A stretch of DNA of 58,534 bases from Candidatus Eiseniibacteriota bacterium. Its GTDB lineage: Bacteria; Eisenbacteria; RBG-16-71-46. The position numbers and the translations under genes were made by a program. The stretch's first letter is position 1. The number at the start of each line of letters is the position of its first letter. Positions 2,126 to 10,863 of this stretch are shown here, one piece after another. The stretch covers positions 1 through 58,534 of the forward strand of contig VBOY01000072.1 in assembly GCA_005893295.1 (NCBI GenBank). The letters are read 5' to 3'. The notes under the pieces are model-generated. The model did not search any database, was not told the DNA's origin, and worked only from the letters and a program-made list of their open reading frames with translations.

Positions 2126-3046
2126 TCAAAACTGCGCGACGAACGACAGCCGGTGCGTGTCCCCGAGGTCGAGCTTGTAGGGGACGAACGCGTAGTCGAG
2201 CCGGACGGTCGGCAGCTTCCAGCCGACCCCGTAGCTGACCGGCGCGATCCTATCGCCGGCCCTCACTCCGAGCCTGAGGGCGGCCCCCACCGGATGAGTG
2301 ATCTCGCCTCCCACCATGGCCACACCGCTCTCCCCCCGCGTCAGGCGAGCCTCGAGGGCCACGTGCCCGCCGACGGCCATCGGGGAGCCGAACCCGTAGG
2401 AGACTCCGGCCTGTCCGGCCATGGGCAGCGGCACCGGCTGGCCGCGCTCGCCGCCGATCCGATACCGAGCCGCCGGGCCCAGGTGCTCGAGCGAGAGGCC
2501 GGCCTTGAGGCTCGGCAACGGCTCCCAGGTGGTGCCGGCGCCGAAGGCCATGGTCGTGGCCGCCGACTCGGCGATTCGCTCGCGCAACACCTGGGCCGAG
2601 CCTCCGATGCGCCACGCCTGGCCGGCGGCGAGCCCGTAGCCGAGCGAAAACTCCAGATCGTGGCCGCCGAAGGACCCGACCTCGTTTCCCACCTCGTCGC
2701 GCTCGACGATCGCCTCGGAATACATCGCCCGGATTCCGGCCGACGTCCCACCGCCTAACAATCGCCCGGCGACCGCGAACTGATCGTGGCGCAGGCTCTG
2801 CAGAAACTCGACGTGCGAACCGACGACCTGAATGCCGTGCACGGCGGCCAGGCCGGCAGGGTTCCAGAACGCGGATTCCACTCCCTCACAGAGCGAGACG
2901 TACGCGCCACCGAGAGCGGAGGCACGTGCGCCTGCCGGCACCTCGAGGAACGCGAAGCCCGGGGGGCCCGCGGCCGCCTGGGAAGGCGCGAACGTGAGCG
3001 CGAACAGGGCCAAGGAGAGGATCGAGCGACGGGGGATTCGGTTCAT
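2126..3046 (-). CDS. PorV/PorQ-like outer-membrane beta-barrel protein
   Basis: 306 aa with a signal peptide (..TFAPSQAAA). The N-terminal motif GARASALGGAYVS...AFWNPAGLA is typical of PorV/FadL-like barrels. It has an alternating beta-strand pattern and ends in ..SFVAQF. Confidence 0.55.
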   Translation of the reverse strand: MNRIPRRSILSLALFALTFAPSQAAAGPPGFAFLEVPAGARASALGGAYVSLCEGVESAFWNPAGLAAVHGIQVVGSHVEFLQSLRHDQFAVAGRLLGGGTSAGIRAMYSEAIVERDEVGNEVGSFGGHDLEFSLGYGLAAGQAWRIGGSAQVLRERIAESAATTMAFGAGTTWEPLPSLKAGLSLEHLGPAARYRIGGERGQPVPLPMAGQAGVSYGFGSPMAVGGHVALEARLTRGESGVAMVGGEITHPVGAALRLGVRAGDRIAPVSYGVGWKLPTVRLDYAFVPYKLDLGDTHRLSFVAQF

Positions 3047-3110: not shown

Positions 3111-4637
3111 TCAGCGACCCTCGCGCCACGGGCGGCTGCGCGAGCCGTCGCCGCGCTCCGAATCGGAACGTCGTTTCTCTTCGTGGCGCCGCTCCTCGCG
3201 CGGAGGATCCGGCCTCGTGATCTCGCGCCGCGATTCGCCGTCACGACTCGGGCCACGCTCCGGACGGAGATCGCCGAGGTCGCGTCCCATCGGGATCCTT
3301 CTCTCTTCCGCGGGTATGCGTTCCATCCGGTCGCGTCCCCTGGGGACCCAGCGCTCTTCGGCGGGCACGCGCTCCAGCCGGTTGCGGCCCATCGGGACCC
3401 GTCTCTCTTGCGCGGGTGCGGGTTCGACTCGGTCCCGTCCCTCGGGCCGTGCGCCTTGGTTGGGTCGCAGCACCCGCCACGGCGGATCGGCGGCACGCGA
3501 TCCGGGGTCGGTCAGGTCATCGGGGCGGCGAGGGCGGAACCGTGGATCGTCCGATGGTTGTGGTCGTGGGTCCTTGCGGATCGGACGCACGCCATCGCGC
3601 ACCCGCTCGGAGCCTCGCGGCACCCACGCGAGCCCTCCTCGCACGCCACGCGTCGCGTCGCGTCGCGAGAAACCTGGAGGAGCCGGCGAATCATCCCCCC
3701 ATACGCCGCCGTTTCGGAACTTCGACGGAGGAACGTAGCCCGAAGGAGGGTCTGACCTGAAGCGAGTGAGCCGGCTCCCCCAAAGAGTGCTCCACCGCTT
3801 CCACCCGTCCCAAGAAGAATAGCACGTCCGGCTGGCAAGCAAGCCCCGATATCGGGGCGGGCAGCTCGGACGATAGACGTAATAGTAGTAGGGCACGAAC
3901 CCGTTCCAGTAGCTCGGCCCCCAGGCCCAGGCCCAATTGACCCGAAAGTCGATGGCACTACAGGTCGTGTAGTAGGGGTCGAAGCCGTCCCACCAGGCCC
4001 AGTGGTTGGGCCGGTGGCAGTCGTAGCACAGGTAGCGCGGGTAGCGGACCTGGTTATGGACGTAGTAGGAGACATAGGCGGTCGCGAAACCGCTCGGATC
4101 TTCCGGGTCCTCGAGCACCCGCCGTCGGATACGCTCCATGGCCACGAACGGGTCGCCGACGATCCGACCCTCCTGGGTCACGCCCTCTTCCTCGTCGTCC
4201 CCCTCGCCTTGGTACCCGATCTCGCCGGCCTGCGCATCGACGGGTCTCAAATACCACGGCAGGTTGCGGAACGGGCGCTCGGAGGCGATGCCCACAATGT
4301 ATCCCTCGCCCACTGGACCTTCCACGACCAGCTCGACGTCCGATCCCGCCGGCGGGATCGCGTAGCTGCGCCGTCCCTCGATGAAGCCACGGCTTCCCCG
4401 CTGGGGGAACAGGGCGTGCACGGCTCCCTCGGAGTCGATCTCGTAGACCAGCAGGTAGGCGTCATCCGAGGTCCGAGCCGTGATCCCGATCGTCTGGCCC
4501 GGCTGGTAGACGCCGTCCGCGCCACGGTCGGTCCACAGCTCGATGTCCAATCCTCGCGCGGGTGAAGCTTCGGCTCGGGAGGTGGGCGCAACTGCTGCCA
4601 CGAGAGCCACCACCAGCATTCCGCACGTCCTTCTCAT
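3111..4637 (-). CDS. Secreted DUF4384-like protein with a CYDCH/aromatic module and an Arg/Glu-rich repeat tail
   Basis: 508 aa with AAGGAAGG upstream of the ATG and a signal peptide. The N-terminal region (LWTDRGADGVYQPGQTIGI..DAYLLVYEIDSEGAVHALFP) resembles DUF4384. This is followed by YPRYLCYDCHRPNHWAWWDGFDPYYTTC and then 17-aa repeats. Confidence 0.6.
   Translation of the reverse strand: MRRTCGMLVVALVAAVAPTSRAEASPARGLDIELWTDRGADGVYQPGQTIGITARTSDDAYLLVYEIDSEGAVHALFPQRGSRGFIEGRRSYAIPPAGSDVELVVEGPVGEGYIVGIASERPFRNLPWYLRPVDAQAGEIGYQGEGDDEEEGVTQEGRIVGDPFVAMERIRRRVLEDPEDPSGFATAYVSYYVHNQVRYPRYLCYDCHRPNHWAWWDGFDPYYTTCSAIDFRVNWAWAWGPSYWNGFVPYYYYVYRPSCPPRYRGLLASRTCYSSWDGWKRWSTLWGSRLTRFRSDPPSGYVPPSKFRNGGVWGDDSPAPPGFSRRDATRGVRGGLAWVPRGSERVRDGVRPIRKDPRPQPSDDPRFRPRRPDDLTDPGSRAADPPWRVLRPNQGARPEGRDRVEPAPAQERRVPMGRNRLERVPAEERWVPRGRDRMERIPAEERRIPMGRDLGDLRPERGPSRDGESRREITRPDPPREERRHEEKRRSDSERGDGSRSRPWREGR
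3240..3440 (-). repeat. 51-bp (17-codon) tandem repeat, 3 full copies plus 1 partial, inside the 3' part of CDS 3111-4637
   Basis: The protein reads GRDRVEPAPAQERRVPM / GRNRLERVPAEERWVPR / GRDRMERIPAEERRIPM / GRDLGDLRPERGPSRD. The DNA copies lie at about 3390-3440, 3339-3389, 3288-3338 and 3240-3287. Confidence 0.8.
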
Positions 4638-4649
4638 CCCACACCTTCC

Positions 4650-5129
4650 TTACGGGCCTTCGTCGCGGGGCCGTTGCTCGGAATCCCTTCGCCCGCGCTT
4701 GCCCTGATGCTTCCTACCCCGTTCCGTCGCCGATCGCTCCGTGCGACGCTCGTTGCCGATCTCTGGTGCGCCGCCCGAGCGGCGCCATGATTCGTAGTCC
4801 CGCCCCTCCAGGTAACGGGGCTGCACCCGATATCCGGGTCGGTACCGATACCGGCCATAGTCCGGGTGGCTTTCCTTGATCCGCACGTAGCGCTCCCGGT
4901 AGAGGGCCACCGCCCCGGGGTAGTCGGCCCACCGATAGCGAAATCCGTAGGCAACGCACCAATCATAGTACGGATCGAAGAATCTGTAGCCGTGGCAGTC
5001 ATAGCAGAAGTAGCTGGGATGGGGTCGCGAGGCGACGCTGTAGCCGAGGAACACGCTCCGGTAGCCGGCGGCGCACCCGAGGAGGCCCGCCACCAGAGCC
5101 CCTGCCGCCACGGCAGTCGTCCAGCGCAC
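4650..5129 (-). CDS. Small lipoprotein with a CYDCH/aromatic module and a highly charged C-terminal tail
   Basis: 159 aa with a GTG start and GAGGAGG 6-7 nt upstream. Lipobox ..AGLLGC. The motif HPSYFCYDCHGYRFFDPYYDWC is paralogous to the module in 3111-4637. The tail is rich in R/E/K. Confidence 0.6.
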   Translation of the reverse strand: MRWTTAVAAGALVAGLLGCAAGYRSVFLGYSVASRPHPSYFCYDCHGYRFFDPYYDWCVAYGFRYRWADYPGAVALYRERYVRIKESHPDYGRYRYRPGYRVQPRYLEGRDYESWRRSGGAPEIGNERRTERSATERGRKHQGKRGRRDSEQRPRDEGP

Positions 5130-5139
5130 CCATTCCTCC

Positions 5140-5964
5140 TCACCGCACCCAGGCCAGCGGCCGGCCGCCGGCCCCCCGCGCCGGACGCGCCCGCAGCTCG
5201 GGATTCCCGGCCGCGGTTTGGTACGCCCAGTCGAACACCACTCGCGCTGGCTGCCCGAGCTGCGGAGCCACCAGGTCCGTCACGCGGAACTTGGCGTAAC
5301 GATCGTCGGCTGTCCAGACCACGTAGCAGTGCCCATCGATCAGCTCGACCGAGCCGCTCGGCGACCAACCCCCGCTGGGAGCGAAGTCGACCGCATCCAG
5401 GGAGCGGGCGTAGCCGGCGTCCTGGATGTCGACGTCGAGTGGCACGAACATCTGGTAGACCGACCCGTTGTAGCCGAAGAACATGTCGGTGGACGAATCG
5501 TCCCATCTCTGGACCGCCGCGGTCGAAAAGTCGTAGCCGCTTCCCGCGTCCTGGTCGAGGAAGTTCACCAGCGACCGGCCGAATCCTTCCGGGCGTGGCG
5601 TGTCGAACAGGATGTCCTCGGAGAGTTCGCTCTCGTTGCCGTGGCGATCGTAGGCGGTCACCCCGAAGTATCGAGTGACGCCGTTCAAGAGACCAGACAC
5701 TCGAAACGAGGTACCGGTGGTCGATCCGACCGGCTGGTATGCGCAGTCGGATCCGCGTGGGCAGGGCGCTACGTAGACCCGATAGCCGGCCACGTCGGGC
5801 TCGGTGTTGTCGAGCCAGTACACCCACACGTCTTGGTCACCCGTCACGGTGTAGACCCCGCGGGGAGGGGCCGGCGGAACGACGTCCCTCACGGAGACCG
5901 TGTCATCATCACATCCGGCCAACGTCAACGCCGCGGCAAATAGGAACGTCCACGTCGCGCGCAT
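5140..5964 (-). CDS. Lipoprotein with a fibronectin type III domain and an unassigned beta-rich C-terminal domain
   Basis: I chose the start at ATG 5964 (MRATWTFLFAAALTLAGC lipobox, GGAGG 8 nt upstream). The track ORF extends to 6180. The FN3-like segment reads PPAPPRGVYTVTGDQDVWVYWLDNTEPDVAGYRVYV...YFGVTAYDRHGNES. Confidence 0.65.
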   Translation of the reverse strand: MRATWTFLFAAALTLAGCDDDTVSVRDVVPPAPPRGVYTVTGDQDVWVYWLDNTEPDVAGYRVYVAPCPRGSDCAYQPVGSTTGTSFRVSGLLNGVTRYFGVTAYDRHGNESELSEDILFDTPRPEGFGRSLVNFLDQDAGSGYDFSTAAVQRWDDSSTDMFFGYNGSVYQMFVPLDVDIQDAGYARSLDAVDFAPSGGWSPSGSVELIDGHCYVVWTADDRYAKFRVTDLVAPQLGQPARVVFDWAYQTAAGNPELRARPARGAGGRPLAWVR

Positions 5965-6021: not shown

Positions 6022-6036
6022 GCAAGCCACGTGCCA
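6022..6036 (-). promoter_or_regulatory. Sigma-54 (-24/-12) promoter, perfect consensus
   Basis: The reverse strand reads TGGCAC-GTGGC-TTGC (GG-N10-GC). The expected transcription start is about 45-50 nt upstream of ATG 5964. Confidence 0.7.
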
Positions 6037-6340: not shown

Positions 6341-6718
6341 CTAGCCGGCGCTGCCGACACCCTGGTGATGGCAATCGTTCTGGCAGTCAATTTTGCCAGC
6401 GGTCAGCGCGTCTTTTGCCGCAGAGTGCCGAGTCGACTCGGCTTGCAGACAGTCGTTCTTTGCGTTGTTGTCCTCGATCAGCTGGCAGACTGCTACCTCG
6501 GCTGCGTGACGCTTTTGCTCCAGCTTGAACAGTAGATCGTACAGATCGTTGCAGTGCTTGATGCAGGTCGTGGGAGCGGCACGCGTCAGACCCACGCCGG
6601 TAAGGTTGTCGCCCACCATCGTGCACTGCGACAGGGTGAGCGAGACGACGCCGAGGACCGTTGCAAGCGCAACGAACACGACCGCACGGTAAATTCGGTT
6701 GGGGCTGGCATGCTGCAT
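6341..6718 (-). CDS. Small secreted Cys-rich helical protein (CX3C ... CX11C ... CX3C)
   Basis: I chose the start at ATG 6718 (GGAGGA 5 nt upstream). The track ORF extends to 6889. It has an N-terminal hydrophobic anchor and the motifs CIKHC, CQLIEDNNAKNDC and CQNDC. The region is visibly less GC-rich than its neighbours. Confidence 0.5.
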   Translation of the reverse strand: MQHASPNRIYRAVVFVALATVLGVVSLTLSQCTMVGDNLTGVGLTRAAPTTCIKHCNDLYDLLFKLEQKRHAAEVAVCQLIEDNNAKNDCLQAESTRHSAAKDALTAGKIDCQNDCHHQGVGSAG

Positions 6719-7149
6719 GAGTTCCTCCTTATGCGCGCAGGAGTCACGTACTTTTCCGCGATGGGCCCAACACCGTCGTTTTGATGTGCCGAGTAGGTCC
6801 TCCCCACACCCGTCTCCGCCAGCGCGTGGAATCGCCCTTGCGTCGAAGCTCGCTCGCAGGGGGAGTCGGTCGCGTCCGGGCGATCCCACGGATCCTGCGC
6901 CGAGGCGGTGACCCCGAGGTTTACAGACCGGATCTAGGAGTCCGAACCACAGGCGGCCGCCGTGCGCACGTCACGCGCAAACGGGTGGTCTCGAAAAGTC
7001 CCAGGCTAGCCGGTCGAACGGGCTGGTGCGCTGTCGAGATGACCGGGGCTCGTACCCTTCGTCCAGGGCCCGAAACGAGCCGGCTAGCCCAGATAAGAAC
7101 GCCTGGTTGCAGCGCTCTTGGAGGTCCCCCCCTCCGCGCAGGGCATTTC

Positions 7150-7164
7150 GCACTCGGCGTGCCA
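7150..7164 (-). promoter_or_regulatory. Candidate sigma-54 promoter
   Basis: The reverse strand reads TGGCAC-GCCGA-GTGC (GG-N10-GC spacing is correct, with one mismatch in the -12 box). It lies about 200 nt downstream of the activator gene stop and about 430 nt upstream of the next start codon (6718). Confidence 0.5.
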
Positions 7165-7367: not shown

Positions 7368-10300
7368 CTATGACAGGTCGCTGGCAGTGCGCTCGGCAGC
7401 CCTGCGCTCGATCCGGAAACTTCGGATCTTGCTCAACAGGGTCGGATAGCTCAGACCCAGCTCGCGCGCTACGCGTGCCTTGTTCCAGCGGTTGCGCTCC
7501 AGCGATTCGCCAATCATTCGTCGCTCGAGGTTTGCGACGTTGTGGCGCAAGGTGCGCACCCTGCCCCTGTCCGCCTCGGCCGGATGCTTCTCCATCATCT
7601 CGGGAGGCAGCAAGCCGGGCCCCAGCGCGTCGCCCTCGTCGGCGAGCACCACCATGCGGCGCACCGTTTTGTCGAGCTCGCGCACATTGCCACGCCACTC
7701 GTAGATCATGAAGACCCGCATCACTTCGGGCAGGAACCCCTTCAGGGTCTTGTCCATCTGACGACTCGCGATCGCCAGGAAATGCTGGGCCAATACCGGA
7801 ATGTCCTCGCGCCGCTCGCGCAGCGCCGGGACGCGCACCGTGATGTCGTTGAGCCTGTAGTAGAGGTCCTCGAGGAAACGGCCTTGCTGGATGCGTTGGC
7901 GCAAGTCACAGCCGGTGGCGCAGATCACGCGCGAGTCGACGCGCTTGCTGCGGGTCGCGCCTACCGCGCGGATCTCGCCGCGGTCGAGCACGTGCAGCAG
8001 CTTGGCCTGGACCGACTCGGGGACTTTCTCGATCTCGTCGAGGAAGATCGTGCCTCCCTCGGCTTCCTCGAACAAGCCGGCCTTGTCCCGCACCGCGCCC
8101 GTGAAGGCACCATGCACGTGCCCGAACAGCTCGCTTTCGAGTAGCTGCTCTGGGATCGCGGCACAGTTGACGTGCAGGAACGGCCGCTCGCGACGGCTGG
8201 AGACCTCGTGAACCACTTGGGCGAGCAGGCCCTTGCCGGTGCCGGTCTCGCCCATGAACAGCACCGACGCCGGGCTGTCGCCGATCTTCGACAACAGGTG
8301 GAGGATGTCGGTCATCGCCCGCGACTGGCACACCACCCGATCCAGACCGGGGCTGGGAAGCAGCCGCTCGCGCAGCGCCTGGTTCTCCTTGAGCAGCATC
8401 GAGCGCTGCGCCTCGACGATCGCGACCGCCGCGGTGTTCGTGAACACCGCGAGCAGGTTGAGCTCGCGTTGCCGGAACGGCCCCAAGAGGTTGTCGCTCA
8501 GGCGATCGACGTAGACCACCCCCACGGATTGCGAGGGGAAGTTGAGCGGCACGCATACCAACGAGCCGACGCCCTCGAGATCGCCGCGGAGTGCGTGGAG
8601 GAACCGCGGGTCGGCCGCGACCCGGCTCGAGAACAGCGGGCCGCTCTCCCCGATCTTCGGGCCGGTGACGCGCTCGATCGAGCGCAGGATGCGCCGTGCG
8701 CGCTCGCGACCCATTCCATGCTGCGCCACGACTCCGAGCCGGACGCCGGCCGAGCTGAATGCCACGAAACCTCGATCCCCACCCGCGTTCTCGACCGCCA
8801 GCTTGACCGCTTGCGCCAACAGCCCATCCATGTCCGAGGCGTCGCGGAACAACCGGTTGGCCTCTTCGAGGGCCCGGAATTCGTTGCAGGTCGAAAGAGA
8901 CACGGCGACGTATTGCTGCTCGAGCTCGCGGCGCAGTGCTCCCGCCCGGTCCTCGGCCTTCTCGTCGCCGGCCTCGGGAAGCCAGGATTCCGCCTGCTCC
9001 AGGAGCCCGAGCGCGGCGTCGTAGTGCTCGCGCTCGGCCTCGAGCCGGGCCAGGTTGAGGATCGCTTCGGCCGCCGGCGCCAGGATGCCCAGCTCGCGGA
9101 ACAACACCGCGGCACGGCGCGCGGCTTCCGACACGGGCTCGAGGACCACTTGGACGCGCTGGCCGCCGGGCAGCAGCAGGACCAGCTCGGCCCACGCCGC
9201 CAGCGTAGTCGCCAGCTCGTAGGTCTCCTGAAGCTGCTCGAAGCATGCACAGGCGCTCTGCACCCTGGCTTCGAGCCGCCCCGCACCGCCCTGCAACGCC
9301 TCGATCCGGGCCAGGCCCCGCTCGGCCACGCCTTGCTCCAGACGATCGCCGAGGCGCCCGGCCAGCTGGGCACCGCTCATGAGGCGCGCCCGAGATTCCT
9401 CGACCCTACCGAGCTGGCCGAGCGCGATGCCGAGCCGGATCTCCAGCTCGCTCGCGAGGTCCCCTGCGGGGGCCAGCCGACGTGCTTCCTCCAAGGCCGG
9501 CTCCAGCAGGGCCACGGCGGCCCCGGGATGGCCGCGATCGATCTCGACCTCGGCCAGGAACTCACGTCCCAACAGGCTCTCGCGCACCGCCGAGACCCCG
9601 TCGGCCAGCGCGATCGCGCGGCGGAAATGCTCTTCGGCCGAGTCGAGCTGGCGGCGGCGGCGGGCGAGTCGTCCGATGGCCAAGAGCGCCGTGGCCTCGC
9701 CCTGCTGGTGGCCCAACTCCTGGGAAATCTGGAGCGAACGCCGAAAACTCTCCGCGGCGAGGTCCCATTGACCCAGGTTGAAGCGGATCAGACCCAAGTT
9801 CTGGTGGTGGCCGCGCATCCGGGAATAAAGCCCCGCGCGCTCGTCGATCTTGAGCGCTTGCTCGAGGAAACGCGTCGCTTCGCGCCACTCGCGAAGGTTC
9901 TTGTAGACCAGCCCGAGATTGTTGAGCGCCGTCACCAGGCCATCCGGATCGTCGATGCGACGGAAGGTGGCGGCGGCGTCTTGGAGCCATTCGATCGCCT
10001 CGGCGCTGCGGCCGAGGCGAGCCGCGCACAGCCCCATCGCCACCCCGACCTGCCCCACGGCCCGGTGCCGATCGGTGTTGCGCAGCACCTGGTAGGCGTA
10101 GCGCGCGTAGCGGCGAGCCTTACGGTAGAGGCCCAGCTCGACCAGCGAACGGGCCCGCTGGGCGGCCACTTCTGCCGCGCGCAGGCGGGGCTGGTCCAAG
10201 TCGCGGGCGACGCGTCGCGCGTCGGACAGGATGCGTAGGGCGGACTCGAAATCACCGCGGCGGTAGTGGGCTTCCGCCAATCGGAGCGTGATTCGGAATC

Positions 10301-10469
10301 GATCGGGCGCGGCATGGTCCGCGGTGCGAAGCGCCGCCGCGTACTCCTCCGCCGCGCCGGCGAAGTTGTCGGCCGCGAAGTACAGGTCGCCGATTGATTC
10401 GCGCCGTCCCGTGCCGTCTTTCAAAGGAAGACGCGCGTGAGTCGAATCGGGGGGGATCGCTCGATGCAC
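7368..10469 (-). CDS. Sigma-54-dependent transcriptional activator: TPR repeats + GAF + AAA+ + Fis-type HTH
   Basis: 1033 aa with a GTG start. The N-terminal half is TPR-like repeats. The AAA+ core has VLFMGETGTGKG (Walker A), GAFTGA and GGTIFLDEI. The C-terminal HTH reads ARVARELGLSYPTLLSKI. Confidence 0.85.
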   Translation of the reverse strand: MHRAIPPDSTHARLPLKDGTGRRESIGDLYFAADNFAGAAEEYAAALRTADHAAPDRFRITLRLAEAHYRRGDFESALRILSDARRVARDLDQPRLRAAEVAAQRARSLVELGLYRKARRYARYAYQVLRNTDRHRAVGQVGVAMGLCAARLGRSAEAIEWLQDAAATFRRIDDPDGLVTALNNLGLVYKNLREWREATRFLEQALKIDERAGLYSRMRGHHQNLGLIRFNLGQWDLAAESFRRSLQISQELGHQQGEATALLAIGRLARRRRQLDSAEEHFRRAIALADGVSAVRESLLGREFLAEVEIDRGHPGAAVALLEPALEEARRLAPAGDLASELEIRLGIALGQLGRVEESRARLMSGAQLAGRLGDRLEQGVAERGLARIEALQGGAGRLEARVQSACACFEQLQETYELATTLAAWAELVLLLPGGQRVQVVLEPVSEAARRAAVLFRELGILAPAAEAILNLARLEAEREHYDAALGLLEQAESWLPEAGDEKAEDRAGALRRELEQQYVAVSLSTCNEFRALEEANRLFRDASDMDGLLAQAVKLAVENAGGDRGFVAFSSAGVRLGVVAQHGMGRERARRILRSIERVTGPKIGESGPLFSSRVAADPRFLHALRGDLEGVGSLVCVPLNFPSQSVGVVYVDRLSDNLLGPFRQRELNLLAVFTNTAAVAIVEAQRSMLLKENQALRERLLPSPGLDRVVCQSRAMTDILHLLSKIGDSPASVLFMGETGTGKGLLAQVVHEVSSRRERPFLHVNCAAIPEQLLESELFGHVHGAFTGAVRDKAGLFEEAEGGTIFLDEIEKVPESVQAKLLHVLDRGEIRAVGATRSKRVDSRVICATGCDLRQRIQQGRFLEDLYYRLNDITVRVPALRERREDIPVLAQHFLAIASRQMDKTLKGFLPEVMRVFMIYEWRGNVRELDKTVRRMVVLADEGDALGPGLLPPEMMEKHPAEADRGRVRTLRHNVANLERRMIGESLERNRWNKARVARELGLSYPTLLSKIRSFRIERRAAERTASDLS

Positions 10470-10566
10470 GTTCGAACCCTCGGAATCCTGTTCTCGGCTC
10501 TCGTTGAATGCCCCCGTGGCTCGTCCGGGGACACTTCTACGACACGTGAGAGCCGCGCTCGACGAC

Positions 10567-10863
10567 CTAGAGCGCGGCTCTCAAGTACCACGCCGCCCAG
10601 ACGCTCCTGACCCGCTGGTACCACGAGCTGTGGCCTTCGCCTTCCGGGACCCGTCCCACGCGATGCCGGACCACGATCGTCTGGCCGACATCGGGATCGC
10701 CTGAAGTGATGACGGCGATCGGCCTCGGGGACGGGTTCGAGCCACCGCTTGAACCGGGGCTCCAACCGGCGGGCGGCCGCGCCTGGGCGCTACCCCAGCC
10801 GAGGGCCAGCGTTGCCATCACCAGGACAACGAAGACGAGAAGCGGGAAACGATGTTTGTTCAT
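10567..10863 (-). CDS. Small secreted hypothetical protein
   Basis: I chose the start at ATG 10863 (GGAGGG upstream). The signal peptide is MNKHRFPLLVFVVLVMATLALGWGSAQA. The track ORF extends to 10998. Confidence 0.4.
   Translation of the reverse strand: MNKHRFPLLVFVVLVMATLALGWGSAQARPPAGWSPGSSGGSNPSPRPIAVITSGDPDVGQTIVVRHRVGRVPEGEGHSSWYQRVRSVWAAWYLRAAL

Follow-up and report, generated by a model that had tools for sequence, protein, structure and literature searches.

A conserved CxDCH domain shared by two neighbouring exported proteins of Candidatus Eisenbacteria: a candidate c-type haem site

Contig VBOY01000072.1 belongs to the metagenome-assembled genome (MAG) of an uncultured soil bacterium of the group Candidatus Eisenbacteria, and the window discussed here is the whole stretch of 58,534 nucleotides that was analysed. 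Two neighbouring genes in it, one for a small lipoprotein and the other for a larger exported protein, share a true paralogous, duplicated module that is centred on the sequence C-x-D-C-H. Judging from its sequence conservation, this CxDCH domain is real and is undescribed among the Pfam, NCBIfam and PDB families. We favour the view that it is a new monohaem c-type domain to which the haem is covalently attached, and would put the probability of this at roughly 45%. The module has been filed as working like a c-type haem site, short of a proven cytochrome, because its motif, the export of both proteins and the maturation genes of the lineage are those of such a site, whereas neither a conserved distal His or Met nor a similarity in family or fold has been found.

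The first-pass annotation of this DNA had placed the module in two adjacent exported open reading frames (ORFs) and had quoted a peptide stretch from each of them. Both ORFs, with their peptides, are present on the minus strand at the same coordinates, and the parts of the two proteins are:

4650..5129, minus strand: small lipoprotein of 159 residues, with a GTG start, the lipobox LLG-C19 and the module core at residues ~30-118, followed by a charged Arg/Glu/Gly tail
4956..5006, minus strand: small-protein signature C42-Y-D-C45-H46 ... D52-P-Y-Y-D-W-C58, from conservation in homologues
3111..4637, minus strand: large exported protein of 508 residues, an ORF with a PF14326 match
4272..4511, minus strand: DUF4384 (PF14326) beta-sandwich head of the large protein, residues 43-122, placed by Pfam
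3738..4175, minus strand: conserved CxDCH domain of the large protein, residues ~155-300, delimited by conservation and by an AlphaFold2 model
3960..4028, minus strand: large-protein signature C204-Y-D-C207-H208 ... D220-P-Y-Y-T-T-C226, from conservation in homologues

On inspection of the sequences both proteins carry Sec-type export signals, the small one a hydrophobic N-terminus with the lipobox LLG-C and the large one an AxA-type site (SRA-EA). From its N- to its C-terminus, the large protein consists of the signal peptide, DUF4384, an acidic linker, the conserved CxDCH domain, a Trp/Tyr-rich stretch and a disordered tail rich in Arg, Glu and Pro. The PF14326 match to residues 43-122 is a strong one (E=1.9e-14; 53.9 bits, with a gathering cut-off of 27); the small lipoprotein has no Pfam match, DUF4384 included. 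The CxDCH domain itself comprises a helix (GDPFVAMERIRRRV), the strands YVSYYV, DFRVN and YYYVYR, the CYDCH loop and the DPYY-x2-C turn. As the first-pass annotation had noticed, the motif is followed in both proteins by segments rich in Tyr, Trp and Arg (Y 12%, W 10.5% and R 11% in residues 196-300 of the large protein; Y 19% and R 17% in residues 36-118 of the small one) and then by very charged tails, which by composition counts hold 24-26% R and 11-15% E. The tail of the large protein (3111-3648, minus strand) is composed of 26% Arg, 14.5% Pro and 19.5% Glu+Asp and holds repeated G-R-[DN]-R-x-E-R-[IV]-P-A-E-E-R-like units; among homologues, which are proteins of 450-600 residues, it differs widely in both length and sequence.

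The two copies of the module are readily aligned. A BLASTP comparison of residues 182-236 of the large protein with residues 21-68 of the small one gives 21/55 identities (38%) at a composition-adjusted E=8e-9, and profile-profile alignment of the two families gives a probability of 95.5% (E=1.5e-8) over 79 columns, which span residues 38-119 of the small protein and 200-317 of the large one. Both proteins are biased in composition (Tyr, Trp, Arg), and a chance or purely compositional resemblance between two aromatic-rich, low-complexity proteins might be suspected on that account. We have rejected this idea, to which we attach next to no likelihood, on the strength of the composition-adjusted E-value, the profile probability and the 13 invariant columns of the joint alignment described below; moreover, the adjacency of the two genes is kept in 26 loci. 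With the same signature kept unchanged through hundreds of homologues of the two families, the match goes far beyond what chance would give. At the DNA level the core 15-mers TGCTACGACTGCCAC (4014-4028) and TGCTATGACTGCCAC (4992-5006) do differ at a single base, as had been reported. Their flanks have diverged to 75% column identity over 71 nucleotides, and the duplication is therefore old.

Two of the earlier descriptions of the module have had to be modified. It had been taken for a unit of ~35 residues. That it is shared is correct, and its size was underestimated: in the large protein the unit is the core of a conserved domain of ~150 residues (~155-300), and because the profiles align over 79 columns, the homology with the small protein runs beyond the 35 residues and through the Tyr/Arg-rich part. 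Similarly, the idea of a domain duplicated within the operon holds as regards paralogy, but the copies are not equal, the small protein being a lineage-restricted partial paralogue of a widespread large one.

Conservation within the two families is striking. Homologues of the small lipoprotein number 204, every one of them unnamed or called a "hypothetical protein", and those of the large protein 456, with Candidatus Eisenbacteria as the source wherever one is named. In 30 members of the small family the lipobox C19, C42, D44, C45, H46, D52-P53-Y54-Y55-D56 and C58 are all invariant, and in 28 members of the large family so are C204, D206, C207, H208, D220-P-Y-Y, C226 and a fourth Cys, C259. 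The joint alignment of both families retains 13 invariant columns (Y-x-C-x-D-C-H, D-P-Y-Y, C, R, P, R). Across 58 diverse sequences, with identities down to 25%, C-x-[DE]-C-H and [DNH]-P-[YF]-x3-C are still invariant, and DUF4384 is present in all 58. The first X of the motif is variable (Y, N, A, S, L, D, E or G) and the second is acidic throughout, while the distance from the second motif Cys to the third invariant Cys ranges over 13-19 residues, the loop varying in length between two fixed turns. After the signal or lipobox, only these three Cys are conserved in the wider family and in the small lipoprotein, C259 being invariant in the Eisenbacteria large proteins. The first-pass annotation had pointed to two results that would speak against its reading of the module as a haem- or metal-binding domain, namely loss of the CXXCH His in homologues and a match to a known non-haem family. 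The His is kept in essentially all homologues, the full signature (C-x-[DE]-C-H plus the third Cys) being present in 298/305 of those retrieved; of the seven exceptions, two are chance repeat proteins and five are apparently frameshifted, fragmentary or degenerate. No match to a known non-haem family was obtained.

The module had also been described as possibly novel, and our profile searches agree, matching it to no described family in Pfam, NCBIfam or PDB. Specifically, Pfam at E<=10 gave nothing relevant for 30 module sequences, the NCBIfam scan gave no match for either of the two proteins, and a PDB sequence-profile search with the module gave no family match. Zinc-finger models produced weak and non-significant matches, zf-CCHC_2 in 1/30 members (E=0.025) and Dof in 1/30 (E=0.055). 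Literature searches on DUF4384, and on Eisenbacteria in combination with cytochrome, found nothing about the CxDCH family.

An AlphaFold2 model of residues 25-330 of the large protein, built with 58 diverse homologues, has a mean predicted local distance difference test score (pLDDT) of 82.7 and a predicted template modelling score (pTM) of 0.85. The predicted layout begins with the DUF4384 beta-sandwich at the N-terminus and an acidic linker, the latter poorly modelled, and continues with the GDPFVAMERIRRRV helix, a three-stranded sheet and two more helices. The two turns, CxDCH and DPY-x3-C, and the variable loop between them are modelled without regular secondary structure and yet at a pLDDT of ~78-91. 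In this one confident model the CxDCH unit is predicted to pack against the DUF4384 domain. A Foldseek search of the model against PDB gave no match at E<=0.001, and the weaker matches (E>=0.0076) are to Ig/MG-like sandwiches, e.g. alpha-2-macroglobulin, C3 and GbpA. Since these fit the DUF4384 head only, the search is uninformative on the module, whose fold matched nothing among the solved structures.

Whether the host could furnish haem to such a site was another check that the first-pass annotation had proposed, in the form of a search for cytochrome c maturation genes. The outcome is positive for related genomes (46/46) and less clear-cut for the MAG itself, where the CcmC-like matches are sub-threshold and lie at a contig end. 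This MAG (3.04 Mb, 87% complete) encodes multihaem c cytochromes, including an ActA-like one and one other, each of which has five CXXCH motifs. Positions 1-2935 of its contig C103 contain a gene for an ABC ATPase followed by two genes for CcmC-like membrane proteins, the last of which is cut by the contig end. In the 87%-complete MAG, ResB, the System II component, was not found. Elsewhere, CcmC/CcmF/CcsA-type proteins score above the Pfam cut-off in 28/28 sampled genomes of the phylum and in 18/18 genomes with distant members of the family.

In the mechanism that we propose, both proteins would be exported unfolded via Sec, the small one as a lipoprotein and the large one with a type-I signal peptide. 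Once in the periplasm, the C-x-D-C-H would be recognised by the lineage's machinery for cytochrome c maturation (System I, CcmA-H), which would link a single haem covalently to the two motif cysteines and leave the adjacent His as the proximal iron ligand. For the distal side, with no other His or Met conserved, the candidates would be the third invariant Cys and the invariant Tyr that precedes it by one helical turn ([DNH]-P-Y-x3-C), and the haem would then have an unusual His/Cys or His/Tyr ligation. The porphyrin and its propionates may be packed by the conserved Arg and the many Tyr and Trp residues. The haem domain of the large protein would sit on the DUF4384 beta-sandwich; the small lipoprotein is a partial duplicate that some lineages have. 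Both proteins would combine with the FN3 lipoprotein and with the PorV/FadL-like barrel encoded beside them into a sigma-54-controlled unit of the outer envelope, whose likely role, to judge from the gene neighbourhood, is in redox sensing, in electron transfer or in the handling of haem at the outer membrane.

An invariant His right after the second Cys is a requirement of haem c attachment that a disulfide or a typical zinc site explains poorly, and System I puts haem on almost any exported, accessible CXXCH. With this His invariant in Sec-exported proteins of System I organisms, covalent haem c is therefore the best explanation. Several observations nevertheless weigh against it. Besides the motif His, neither the joint alignment nor that of the 58 sequences has a conserved distal His or Met, which leaves Cys226/Cys58 and the Tyr as the only candidates. 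No similarity in sequence or fold to any cytochrome c family emerged from Pfam, NCBIfam, the PDB profiles or Foldseek against PDB. In the AlphaFold2 model the CxDCH domain is predicted to be beta-rich and folds confidently without a cofactor, and the corresponding model of the small lipoprotein, built with 30 homologues, is unusable (mean pLDDT 64.6, and 41 at the motif). CcmF was not found in the 87%-complete MAG, probably because a CcmC-like gene is cut by the contig end. Furthermore, cytochrome c maturation proteins are present in carriers and non-carriers of the module alike, and their co-occurrence with it is thus necessary for the haem reading and non-discriminating. Finally, two of the invariant residues, the acidic one within the motif and the third Cys, would be equally at home in a metal site.

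This last point leads to a different view of the domain, in which the three invariant Cys, with His208 or an invariant Asp, would bind a structural or functional metal (Zn, Fe or Cu) and so staple the loop between the CxDCH and DPY-x3-C turns, with no haem involved. The set of invariant residues, three Cys plus a His and acidic residues, is appropriate for this; a loop of variable length (13-19 residues) between fixed flanking turns is what metal knuckles have; the region is nearly devoid of regular secondary structure and yet modelled at a pLDDT of ~80; and there are the very weak single-member matches to zinc-knuckle and zinc-ribbon models (E=0.025-0.055). However, those matches are each confined to 1/30 members and not significant, adjacent Cys and His seldom ligate the same ion, and the module has one CxxC and a single distant Cys, with no second CxxC knuckle and no canonical C2HC spacing. 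Cys-rich zinc sites are also uncommon among exported proteins of oxidising envelopes, and in System I organisms one would expect haem to be attached to a CXXCH that is exported and exposed. On balance we regard a metal site as unlikely, although both it and the disulfide discussed next still compete seriously with haem. Less probable again is that the CxxC forms a redox-active or structural disulfide, the His tuning the thiol pKa and the third Cys being either resolving or free, in which case the domain would sense redox state through its thiols or would just be a fold stabilised by a disulfide. The classical motif of dithiols and disulfides is CXXC, and the fourth invariant Cys (C259) of the Eisenbacteria large protein would permit two disulfides; but the number of conserved Cys in the wider family and in the small lipoprotein is odd (three), there is no thioredoxin-family Pfam match, and the predicted three-stranded sheet with loops is not a thioredoxin fold. 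Such a disulfide would moreover leave the absolute conservation of the His and of the acidic residue unexplained. A c-type haem site remains our preferred reading of the CxDCH domain.

The family is narrow. A search of 1.84 billion representative proteins with the profile of the joint alignment retrieved only 67 clusters, with two architectures (short lipoproteins and DUF4384 proteins), and the family is therefore a lineage-specific invention and not a universal one. Within the phylum sample, 106/151 genomes carry the module. Among the listed genomes, in the case of the window's own family, all have the large form and about a third also have the small form, which, where present, is always ~1 kb upstream of the large form. 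When species-representative genomes were scanned, the family turned up mainly in Eisenbacteria, with additional members in MAGs labelled Gemmatimonadota/Gemmatimonadales and Bacteroidota/Ignavibacteria; the signature is kept in the Gemmatimonadota- and Bacteroidota-labelled MAGs. These phyla, as labelled here, belong to the FCB group.

Around the module, in the first 10.5 kb of the window, the genes for the FN3 lipoprotein, the small lipoprotein, the DUF4384 protein and a PorV/PorQ-like barrel follow one another in this order, all on the minus strand. The features outside the two paralogues are:

7368..10469, minus strand: TPR-GAF-AAA+ sigma-54 activator, the conserved upstream neighbour, from the Pfam domains of its homologue at locus L004 and from synteny
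ORF 6341-6889, probable ATG at 6718, minus strand: small Cys-rich exported protein, between the activator and the operon
6022..6036, minus strand: perfect sigma-54 promoter TGGCAC-GTGGC-TTGC, read in the sequence ~60 nucleotides upstream of the FN3 lipoprotein ATG at 5964
5140..5964, minus strand: FN3 lipoprotein (LAG-C) with a C-terminal beta domain, the first gene of the operon, from Pfam and synteny
2126..3046, minus strand: outer-membrane barrel of the PorV/PorQ family (FadL-like), 306 residues, the last gene of the cluster, from NF033709
1-1105, minus strand: HtrA/DegP-like protease gene, from ORFs

The barrel matches NF033709, the NCBIfam PorV/PorQ family, with E=1.2e-29 (103.9 bits, cut-off 90) and falls far under the cut-offs of the PorV and PorQ equivalog models. 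The TPR-GAF-AAA+ activator is the probable regulator of the operon. Over 80 related loci, the DUF4384 protein is found in 78, the FN3 lipoprotein in 68, the sigma-54 activator in 53, the PorV-like barrel in 51, HtrA in 41 and the small lipoprotein in 26. The pairing of the FN3 lipoprotein with the DUF4384 gene extends across phyla, the partner in the distant locus L090 being 44% identical to that of the window. In 60/64 related loci, including those of distant phyla (Bacteroidota-labelled MAGs), the FN3 lipoprotein gene has an equivalent of the sigma-54 motif upstream of it, and the module is thus part of a conserved envelope operon under sigma-54 control. In the Gemmatimonadales loci (L073, L074, L076, L077, L080, L081, L086 and L089) the DUF4384-CxDCH gene occurs without the FN3 lipoprotein partner; at L074 it is flanked by a DUF58/VWA gene and an M28 peptidase gene, a context unlike that of Eisenbacteria. 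Two other loci (L004 at 9999-10781 and L005 at 4140-4922) have an extra gene of 260 residues, with no Pfam match, between the DUF4384 gene and the barrel, which the window lacks.

The C-terminal beta domain of the FN3 lipoprotein gives matches to the HmuY model in 9/31 members, the best with E=9.4e-4 and all of them under the gathering score, and there are no HmuY chains among the 60 best PDB profile matches listed for this lipoprotein, almost all of which are FN3 domains. Its sequence thus allows at most a possible link to haem handling through an HmuY-like domain. The small Cys-rich protein upstream of the operon (6341-6718, minus strand) carries CIKHC ... CQNDCHH, the second of these motifs being CX3CH, which is a rarer variant of the haem c attachment motif; far upstream of its gene there is a second sigma-54-like motif, TGGCAC-GCCGA-GTGC, at ~7150-7164. 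At the other end of the cluster, the HtrA/DegP-like gene is split between two frames near ~400-440: past "DASIN" the ORF of 368 residues ends in a tail of Arg-rich nonsense, ORF 1-438 takes up the PDZ part, and the catalytic GNSGG segment is apparently missing. This could be either a frameshift or pseudogene, or an error of assembly.

With its sigma-54 promoter, dedicated TPR-GAF activator, lipoprotein partner and barrel, the domain has a clear context and is therefore directly testable. If it does bind haem, it would represent a structurally new and very small class of c-type cytochromes, and with it an unstudied outer-envelope module of widespread, uncultured soil and groundwater phyla; a His/Cys or His/Tyr haem in a shell rich in Tyr and Trp would be relevant to redox sensing and to long-range electron transfer. 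Should it prove instead to be a metal site or a thiol switch, it would still be an undescribed and strictly conserved exported domain. One may go further and suppose that the CxDCH...DPY-x3-C domain founds a new structural class of monohaem c cytochrome with non-canonical His/Cys or His/Tyr ligation and that it is joined by the FN3 lipoprotein and the barrel in an outer-membrane device, under sigma-54 control, for redox, haem handling or sensing that is common to Eisenbacteria, Gemmatimonadota and some Bacteroidota-labelled lineages; in this complete form we find the proposal somewhat doubtful.

Among known systems, two that come to mind from the neighbourhood do not bear on the module itself: the likeness to PorV/PorQ of type IX secretion and to FadL-like barrels belongs to the downstream gene, and the weak likeness to HmuY-type lipoproteins belongs to the upstream FN3 lipoprotein. 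With the PF14326 proteins there is a bona fide DUF4384 in common, at the N-terminus of the large protein, but the Pfam model leaves the CxDCH domain uncovered and the small lipoprotein has no DUF4384 to compare; elsewhere, DUF4384 is an uncharacterised Ig/MG-like sandwich that occurs with caspases and kinases. The magnetochrome of MamP, MamE, MamT and MamX is likewise a very small CXXCH-centred unit duplicated among envelope proteins. It is, however, a unit of ~20 residues as against a part of a fold of ~150 here, its conserved upstream His (the sixth ligand) has no counterpart in our module alignments, and there was no Pfam match to it at E<=10. The c-type cytochromes in general, with their small monohaem and lipoprotein forms, differ from the module in that it shows no detectable relation to them in sequence or fold, is predicted to be beta-rich, lacks a distal His or Met and has an acidic residue in its motif. 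They resemble it in having an invariant CXXCH in Sec-exported proteins of organisms equipped for cytochrome c maturation. Within this class the His/Cys-ligated haems of SoxA, TsdA and DsrJ offer a particular parallel in their general features, as the extra conserved Cys of the module could be the distal ligand.

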